From assembly GCF_053078305.1 (NCBI RefSeq), contig NZ_CP166879.1: 64,000 nucleotides of DNA; one strand, 5' to 3'. Shown here piece after piece: positions 48,731 to 49,582 of this stretch; within the stretch, counting starts at the first letter, position 1; each line of letters starts with the position of its first letter. The notes beneath the pieces were generated by a model. That model did no database searches and was not told the origin of the DNA. It saw only the letters and a program-made list of their open reading frames with translations. The position numbers and the translations under genes were made by a program.

Positions 48731-48815
48731 ATTAATGATACCTCAGTTACTTTTTTAGTATGGTAACTAAAGTATCATTCATGGGCAAGCGTTTTTTGAT
48801 ACTAAAGTATCTTTC
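48731..48815. promoter_or_regulatory. candidate OL/PL operator-promoter region
   Basis: Copies of the inverted-repeat motif GATACT-NN-AGTATC (ggtaactaaagtatca; gatactaaagtatc), also seen in the cI-cro gap. Confidence 0.5.
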
Positions 48816-49472
48816 TTAGAAAATATCCCATCGGGCATCCACGATCACGCCGACGATTTCACAATCATCATCTATTTCAATGATGGGATACTGAGGATTG
48901 AGTGGTTTCAGGAAAGATCTTCCCATTTCAGTCACATATTTTTTGAATGTTGCTTCGTTGGTTGATTTTTTTCTTGCGATAACGTAACAGCCTGAATGTA
49001 CAGCTTTGTCTGGGTTTACGAGAATAGACATACCCTCAGGAAAGGTGATTCCAACAGGCGAGGTCATTGAATCACCATGTACTTCAAGCCAAAAACCTCT
49101 TTCACCTGCATATTTGACAGAATGTCTCCAGTTATCATGGTCATACATGCTGTAATCATCTCCAGCAGTAGAGAATAGTCCGGCCTGGACCCAGTTAATA
49201 ACGGGATAGGAATGAAATGCGTCTTTTTGAGGACAACTCTTAACATTGTTTTCCCAGTTTACAGATTGTTCTTCTCCATTTTGTAGCCATTGTGGAGTGC
49301 AGTTTAGGGCTGTGGCTACCTTGAATAAAGTATCTCCGTTGAAGCTTTTAGTAAGTCCTTGCTCTGCTTTGCTTATAGCCACGCGGGTTATACCGGCTTT
49401 TTTTGCTAATGCATCTTGTGTCAATCCTGCCCGTTGCCTGGCGCTGCTAAGGCGCTCTCCCAAAGTTCTCAT
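48816..49472 (-). CDS. CI-like prophage repressor (HTH plus S24 LexA-type autopeptidase)
   Basis: ORF 48816..49514; ATG at 49472 with an AGGAGA RBS. N-terminal HTH (LTQDALAKKAGITRVAISKAEQG), C-terminal GDSM...K peptidase motif. Confidence 0.85.
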   Translation of the reverse strand: MRTLGERLSSARQRAGLTQDALAKKAGITRVAISKAEQGLTKSFNGDTLFKVATALNCTPQWLQNGEEQSVNWENNVKSCPQKDAFHSYPVINWVQAGLFSTAGDDYSMYDHDNWRHSVKYAGERGFWLEVHGDSMTSPVGITFPEGMSILVNPDKAVHSGCYVIARKKSTNEATFKKYVTEMGRSFLKPLNPQYPIIEIDDDCEIVGVIVDARWDIF

Positions 49473-49582
49473 TTTATCTCTCCTGTTTTTTCGGTCGATA
49501 CTAAAGTAGCACATATTCTTGATACTTTAGATTCATTTGTTGTACATTTATGGACGCTAAAGTATCAATCAGTGAGTGAGAG
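49473..49582. promoter_or_regulatory. candidate OR/PR/PRM immunity switch
   Basis: Three copies of the GATACT-NN-AGTATC-like half-site palindrome in the 110-bp divergent cI/cro gap. Confidence 0.6.

Follow-up and report, generated by a model that had tools for sequence, protein, structure and literature searches.

Six dyad-symmetric putative operators on both sides of the cI-like repressor gene of a lambdoid prophage

Genes of the immunity region

The window analysed here is a 64,000-nt stretch of contig NZ_CP166879.1 (assembly GCF_053078305.1). Between positions 48320 and 49792 it harbors three genes, with AT-rich gaps of 85 and 110 nt between them (Table 1). A gene for a cI-like repressor lies in the middle, bordered by a divergent gene at the position of cro and by a gene for a 136-aa protein. 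A 14-bp dyad, GATAC-N4-GTATC, is present in three copies in the gap between the repressor gene and its divergent neighbor, and three further copies are found immediately downstream of cI. These sets are denoted OR and OL. The first-pass annotation had described three dyads in the cI/cro gap and at least two downstream of cI; all three of the former are present, and the latter (48763 and 48798) are joined by a third at 48737, so that the left set also comprises three sites.

Table 1. Coordinates of genes, sites and predicted promoters in the immunity region
Feature	Position	Strand	Remarks
136-aa gene	48320-48730	-	First gene of the leftward early operon; phrog_4739
Immunity cassette	48524-49675		Delimited by blastn against the prophage of E. 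coli 2015C-3121 (L003)
OL site c	48737-48750		GATACCTCAGTTAC; about +3 to +16 of the predicted PL transcript; over the Shine-Dalgarno sequence of the 48730 gene
Predicted PL -10	48760-48765	-	TACCAT; 17-nt spacer
OL site b	48763-48776		GTAACTAAAGTATC; within PL spacer and -10
Predicted PL -35	48783-48788	-	TTGCCC; TTGCCA, TTGACC or TTGACA in relatives
OL site a	48798-48811		GATACTAAAGTATC, perfect palindrome; 4 nt beyond the cI stop codon; upstream of the PL -35
cI-like repressor gene, 218 aa	48816-49472	-	Shine-Dalgarno sequence AGGAGAG at 49478-49484
OR site a	49497-49510		GATACTAAAGTAGC; cI-proximal
Predicted PR	49519-49548	+	TTGATA (49519-49524), 18-nt spacer, TACATT (49543-49548)
OR site b	49521-49534		GATACTTTAGATTC; over the PR -35; 24 bp centre-to-centre from site a
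OR site c	49553-49566		GACGCTAAAGTATC; cro-proximal; over the predicted PR start; 32 bp from site b
Cro-position gene, 69 aa	49583-49792	+	Divergent from cI; first gene of PR

The repressor consists of an HTH_3 domain (Pfam, residues 10-63, E 5.9e-14) followed by a Peptidase_S24 domain (Pfam, E 8.9e-23). Over residues 11-215 it matches lambda CI (3bdn, E 3.7e-34), with the QAG, GDSM, and TFKK motifs of both proteins aligned, and its N-terminal domain is closest, among PDB sequences, to 434 Cro (E 5e-10), P22 c2, and the 434 repressor. The features of a self-cleaving repressor of the LexA/lambda-CI type are present, i.e. a Cro/C1-type HTH, an S24 domain, an Ala-Gly site, and a Ser/Lys dyad. The Ala97-Gly98 cleavage site is contained in QAGLF (residues 96-100), and GDSM and TFKK occupy residues 133-136 and 175-178, respectively. 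The recognition helix reads TRVAISKAEQG (residues 29-39). The start codon yielding 218 aa is also used in the RefSeq annotation of a locus with 99.6% identity. A longer ORF of 232 aa (start at 49514) was rejected, as it would begin inside OR site a, lacks a Shine-Dalgarno sequence, and differs from the RefSeq start.

The product of the Cro-position gene has no sequence-family match in Pfam (up to E 10), NCBIfam or PDB sequences. It belongs to PHROG 4749, a PHROG of unknown function, and its predicted fold is closest to those of Cro proteins. The usual tight turn of the HTH is replaced by a basic insert of nine residues, FPKRGKPRG, in which P22, G25, and R28 are invariant. Homologs form 42 clusters, none of which carries a functional name; those named after their source all stem from Enterobacterales. 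In each of the nine homolog loci inspected (L087-L095), the gene is divergent and located beside an S24 repressor gene. The 69-aa protein is best read as a divergent Cro, judged from gene order and a predicted structure. The earlier label "cro" is thus borne out by position and predicted fold; by sequence family, it finds no match. The 136-aa protein encoded on the other side of cI harbors a C-terminal HTH_3 domain (Pfam, residues 70-124).

The wider gene order is visible in E. coli JNEC-KY171, where a locus of 99.6% identity belongs to a lambdoid prophage that adjoins a DUF72 gene at yecN-cmoAB, where yecE is located. This prophage shows the order int, xis, early-left genes, the region described here, helicase, primase, Q, lysis genes, and terminase.

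Dyads and predicted promoters in the two gaps

Five of the six sites, GATACTAAAGTAGC, GATACTTTAGATTC, GACGCTAAAGTATC, GTAACTAAAGTATC, and GATACTAAAGTATC, are the sole matches to the dyad in the 64-kb window when up to two mismatches are allowed over 12 specified positions. At this threshold, chance would produce about 0.007-0.013 matches in both gaps together (195 nt), compared with the five observed; if the perfect palindrome is taken as the seed, the probability of at least four further sites is about 1e-9. The core CTAAAGTA occurs five times in the window (1.07 expected), each time in the region of the gap sites. In a leave-one-out position weight matrix (PWM), each of the five scores above all other positions of the window, and an unbiased repeat search retrieves the same site family (families D1 and D2). 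At up to three mismatches, no enrichment is found over the whole window (six observed, 4.75 expected); the signal therefore lies in the close matches and in their clustering.

The sixth site, GATACCTCAGTTAC, has two mismatches relative to GATACNNNNGTATC. Its leave-one-out PWM score of 9.5 is the weakest of the six and is equalled by three other positions in the window. It is almost invariant among the relatives from E. coli and phages, with a one-base difference in two sequences, and is missing from Pantoea and from locus L072. A pool of 80 half-sites from seven diverged loci gives the consensus G(79) A(61) T/A(47/30) A(71) C(77) T(56) W. Most sites combine one consensus half with one variant half, which is usual in lambdoid operators.

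Among the best PWM matches outside both gaps is GTTACTTTTGATTC (49949-49962, score 10.2). It is located within a 97-aa ORF about 380 bp to the right of OR, outside the immunity cassette, and is also found in the type-2 prophage L003 described below; this match is probably due to chance. Searches of Pfam (up to E 10), NCBIfam, and PDB sequences yielded nothing meaningful for the 97-aa protein.

The sites overlap predicted sigma-70 promoters, both of which are directed away from cI. At the position of PR, TTGATA-17/18-TAnnnT is found in all seven diverged loci, where it is the top or tied-top promoter hit. The PL -10 (TACCAT, TACATT or TACGCT) likewise keeps its position and its 17-nt spacer in seven of seven. 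Half-sites with a preceding T resemble promoter elements (TTGATA, TGnTACTTT). Because of this mimicry, part of their conservation could reflect promoter function rather than contact with a repressor.

For the maintenance promoter of cI (PRM), the comparison of seven loci revealed no leftward promoter that the whole family retains in the gap between cI and cro. In the window, the candidates are GTATCA-16-TAGTAT and an extended -10-like TGcTACTTT, both within OR site a, and in Pantoea a good leftward TTGAAA-16-TAAAAT is located between and beside sites a and b. Two further candidates were discarded: a mirror-image TTGATA(49568-49563)-18-TACAAC, derived from the 28-nt palindrome I1, whose hexamers are not conserved in relatives, and TCGACC-16-TAAAAT, whose -10 overlaps the cI start codon downstream of the Shine-Dalgarno sequence.

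A search of the minus strand between 48200 and 50200 revealed no intrinsic terminator. The stretch from the cI stop to OL (48812-48818 in the window) is without one in this prophage and in its relatives from E. coli and phages, and a clear GC-rich terminator follows cI in the relatives from Pantoea, Photorhabdus, Salmonella, and Yersinia (L087, L089, L093, L095).

Conservation of the sites among relatives

The exact region is rare: it is complete at more than 99% identity in 3 of 5426 complete E. coli genomes. Repressors with 86-88% identity are encoded by phiP27, by seven Stx1a-converting phages, and by two Stx2a-converting phages, and about 68 IMG/VR contigs encode repressors with 75-100% identity. 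The helix TRVAISKAEQG is common to all of these, i.e. phiP27, the Stx1a and Stx2a phages, and the approximately 68 IMG/VR repressors. When the unique gap sequences are aligned, the sites are conserved and the neighboring intergenic bases are variable.

More distant loci from Pantoea, Photorhabdus, Salmonella, Yersinia, and Providencia were retrieved via homology of the Cro-like protein. A cross-locus PWM built solely from the six sites of the window recovers exactly the six gap sites as its top six matches in Stx1_14040, Stx2_12E129, and Photorhabdus. In phiP27, L072, and Pantoea, every gap site ranks within the top eight, and the same sites are present in the Salmonella and Yersinia loci. All seven diverged loci keep the OR spacing of 24 + 32 bp unchanged. 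Site positions are conserved in helix-sharing relatives from five genera.

These data bear on the possibility that the repeats lack a regulatory function and arose by chance or were left behind by a duplication of the promoter region. In favor of it, both gaps are AT-rich, and a 34-nt direct repeat with 74% identity connects 48727-48760 with 49511-49544. It is opposed by the five matches observed where about 0.01 are expected in the gaps, and by the retention of positions and spacing across genera in which the flanking intergenic sequence has diverged. The probability of this explanation is practically negligible.

Immunity cassette and co-variation of dyad and recognition helix

Compared with the window, the prophage of E. 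coli 2015C-3121 (L003) shows 98-99% identity up to position 48523 and again from 49676 onwards, and the 1.15 kb in between cannot be aligned. The exchanged segment runs from the N-terminus of the 136-aa protein through the left gap, cI, and the right gap to residue 31 of the Cro-like protein. On this sequence comparison, it is a classical immunity cassette. The dyads are exchanged together with the repressor: the L003 repressor carries the helix SRVTISKIELG, and instead of GATAC dyads, GAAA(T/C)-N4-(G/A)TTTC is found in both gaps.

This association of helix and dyad is general among the loci compared. Repressors with the helix RVAISKAE(Q/L)G are accompanied by GATAC dyads (type 1) in the window and in eight compared loci, and the roughly 68 IMG/VR loci with the same helix show conserved sites. 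Repressors with RVTISKIELG, encoded by L003, by the Providencia locus L092, and by L094, a Logan contig, are accompanied by the GAAA(T/C) dyads (type 2) in both gaps, on which the PWM of the window yields much lower scores. The two types differ mainly at positions 3 and 5 of the half-site. Heteroimmunity between type 1 and type 2 is predicted from these sequences, and the prophage of the window is predicted to be homoimmune with those of phiP27, Stx1_14040, and Stx2_12E129.

It had been suggested earlier that the dyads define the immunity specificity of this prophage. Their tracking of the recognition helix and their exchange along with the cassette agree with such a role, but this prophage is not alone in having this specificity; almost certainly, it is that of the phiP27 immunity type and is shared with some Shiga-toxin phages.

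The cassette boundaries also help to weigh whether a regulator other than the cI-like repressor, either the Cro-like protein on its own or the HTH protein of 136 aa from the left operon, binds the dyads. Both proteins are encoded beside the sites, and since 31 N-terminal residues of the former and about 69 of the latter (48524-48730) are contained in the exchanged segment, they co-vary with the dyad, too. The HTH domain of the 136-aa protein, however, is not part of the cassette, and the window and L003 have virtually the same HTH domain despite their different dyads, which rules this protein out as the specificity partner of the sites. As for Cro, it shares the operators of the repressor in every lambdoid system studied and does not replace it (PMC6649833, PMC5977221). 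Moreover, the repressor helix tracks the dyad type over ten loci from six genera. Binding by such a regulator in place of the cI-like repressor is very improbable.

When the window, phiP27, and the Stx phages are compared with L003, the 136-aa protein has an N-terminal domain that follows the type of the repressor. This co-segregation hints at an interaction of the domain with an immunity-specific partner. In two further E. coli strains with a type-2 cassette, 2012EL-2448 and 2018-166, the match to the region falls into three pieces with an annotated IS1A transposase beneath, which suggests an IS1 insertion in or beside their immunity region.

Proposed function of the dyads

The six dyads are very probably the operators of a lambda-type lysis/lysogeny switch run by the cI-like repressor of this E. 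coli prophage. The first-pass reading of the sites as OR and OL operator sets thereby gains support from several sides: the domains of the repressor, the overlap with promoters, the conserved positions, the co-variation with the helix, and the exchange of the cassette. Dimers of the 218-aa repressor would bind GATAC-N4-GTATC, a site whose 5+4+5 geometry resembles that of the 14-bp operators in phage 434. On the right side, repressor bound over the PR -35 (site b) and over the transcription start (site c) would block the Cro-like and replication genes. On the left side, the leftward early operon would be blocked by repressor at site b in the PL spacer and -10, with site a upstream of the promoter and site c over the 5' leader.

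Because a C-terminal domain of the lambda CI type is retained, cooperative binding between neighboring sites is likely, and cooperativity might also connect the two operator sets across the roughly 750 bp between them. With its Ala-Gly site and Ser/Lys residues, the domain is likely to undergo RecA-stimulated self-cleavage, so that DNA damage would relieve repression. From the lytic side, these sites are expected to be bound by the Cro-like protein as well.

A possible RNA hairpin at OL

OL sites b and c are part of a 20-nt inverted repeat (48731-48750 and 48763-48782) and might therefore be regarded mainly as the arms of a minus-strand RNA hairpin rather than as two separate operators. The minus-strand RNA is predicted to fold with -24.4 kcal/mol (z -5.98), and GAGG and AUG, the Shine-Dalgarno sequence and start of the 48730 gene, are paired in this structure. 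A transcript that begins at the PL start is without the 5' arm and is predicted to be unstructured (-1.3 kcal/mol). The mismatched positions of the stem form G-U pairs on the minus strand, as opposed to A-C on the plus strand, pairing survives the changes that relatives show on one side only, and pair counts over 24 sequences show that the stem is kept. In addition, the E. coli members lack a terminator between cI and PL, unlike the Pantoea, Photorhabdus, Salmonella, and Yersinia loci.

On the other hand, the covariation lacks significance (values as high as those observed arise in 39-50 of 500 shuffles, and 8 of 17 pairs are invariant), and two dyad-symmetric operators in inverted arrangement are necessarily self-complementary. 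Pantoea and L072 lack site c, the stem has three mismatches in Photorhabdus, and site b is conserved in all loci, along with PL. That the two sites serve mainly as hairpin arms is thus unlikely. A hairpin would also be compatible with site b being an operator, and it is best treated as a low-probability addition to the operator function of the sites and not as a replacement for it.

If the hairpin forms, a stem of 17-21 bp would hide the Shine-Dalgarno sequence and AUG of the 48730 gene in transcripts that read through from cI; as no terminator separates cI from PL, such transcripts could be translationally locked. Transcripts from PL would begin inside the loop and would stay open and translatable. 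A search of Rfam revealed no known RNA family in the immunity region. A wider scheme, in which OL b and c double as an RNA switch and the near-consensus OR site a might entail strong autorepression and easy induction, the latter as reported for Stx phages, is speculative and rather improbable. Were it true, the same DNA would serve as a protein-binding operator and as a translational lock that depends on the origin of the transcript.

Comparison with characterized switches

The architecture is that of a textbook lambda/434 switch and introduces no new principle. As in lambda, divergent cI and cro genes enclose three dyad operators, three more are placed at the leftward early promoter, and the repressor combines an N-terminal HTH domain with a self-cleaving, oligomerizing S24 domain at the C-terminus. 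The centre-to-centre distance of 24 bp of one adjacent pair is likewise found in lambda, and the second OR spacing is 32 bp here. The operators of lambda comprise 17 bp (TATCACCGC...), whereas those described here comprise 14 bp, have another sequence, and have their symmetry axis between base pairs. Further differences concern the left side, where OL directly follows cI without rexAB or a terminator and the first PL gene encodes an HTH protein. The lambda PRM transcript is leaderless; here, in contrast, cI has a Shine-Dalgarno sequence and a leader.

The operators of phage 434 are 14 bp long and read ACAA-N6-TTGT. The dyads of the window resemble them in length, in their conserved outer bases, and in the variable 4-bp centre (PMC6649833). 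They differ in the half-site, GATAC(T) instead of ACAA, and the recognition helix is TRVAISKAEQG. While 434 Cro is a copy of the CI domain (PMC6649833), the Cro of this prophage appears, from its predicted fold, to be a separate Cro-fold protein.

In the Stx phages 933W and BAA2326, three OR sites control PR and PRM, and the relative strength of the site at the OR3 position has been connected with a low level of repressor and with ready induction (PMC5977221). The repressor of the window is likewise lambdoid, and its cI-proximal site is among the best matches to the consensus. 933W possesses neither OL3 nor cooperativity (PMC5977221); the present prophage differs from it by three left sites, and the operator sequences are unrelated.

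The immunity regions of phiP27 and of the Stx1a/Stx2a-converting phages Stx1_14040 and Stx2_12E129 share with the window the six site positions, PR and PL, and homologous Cro-like and HTH genes. DNA identity to the window is about 76% over the region, and the genes beyond cro differ. Individual sites of this group differ as well: the perfect palindrome is OL site a in the window and OR site c in Stx2_12E129.

The searchable literature yielded no description of the GATAC-N4-GTATC motif or of phiP27-type operators; a prior tabulation is possible in Hall et al. (2005), who reportedly compiled Cro/OR half-sites for many phages. Nor were reports of binding, footprints or transcripts for a phiP27-type repressor found there. 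A putative operator motif and a predicted promoter layout are now assigned to an immunity type that phiP27 (Stx2e) and several Stx1a- and Stx2a-converting phages have in common with prophages of five enterobacterial genera. The motif allows homoimmune prophages to be predicted and provides defined targets for studies on the induction of toxin phages. Rules of protein-DNA recognition could be studied on the repressor-operator sets of types 1 and 2, which together with the unclassified variant of Cro would make up a small natural data set.

Other features of the window

Rfam searches of the window detected the sok antitoxin RNA at 54776-54947 (97.6 bits), a match that fits the annotation of a Hok/Gef gene downstream of Q in the near-identical JNEC-KY171 prophage. 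The sRNA STnc100 is located in the late region of the prophage (59719-59930, 167.6 bits). Three copies of the REP-derived naRNA4 were found at 17546-17616, 40587-40663, and 40701-40777, in the chromosomal part to the left of the prophage.
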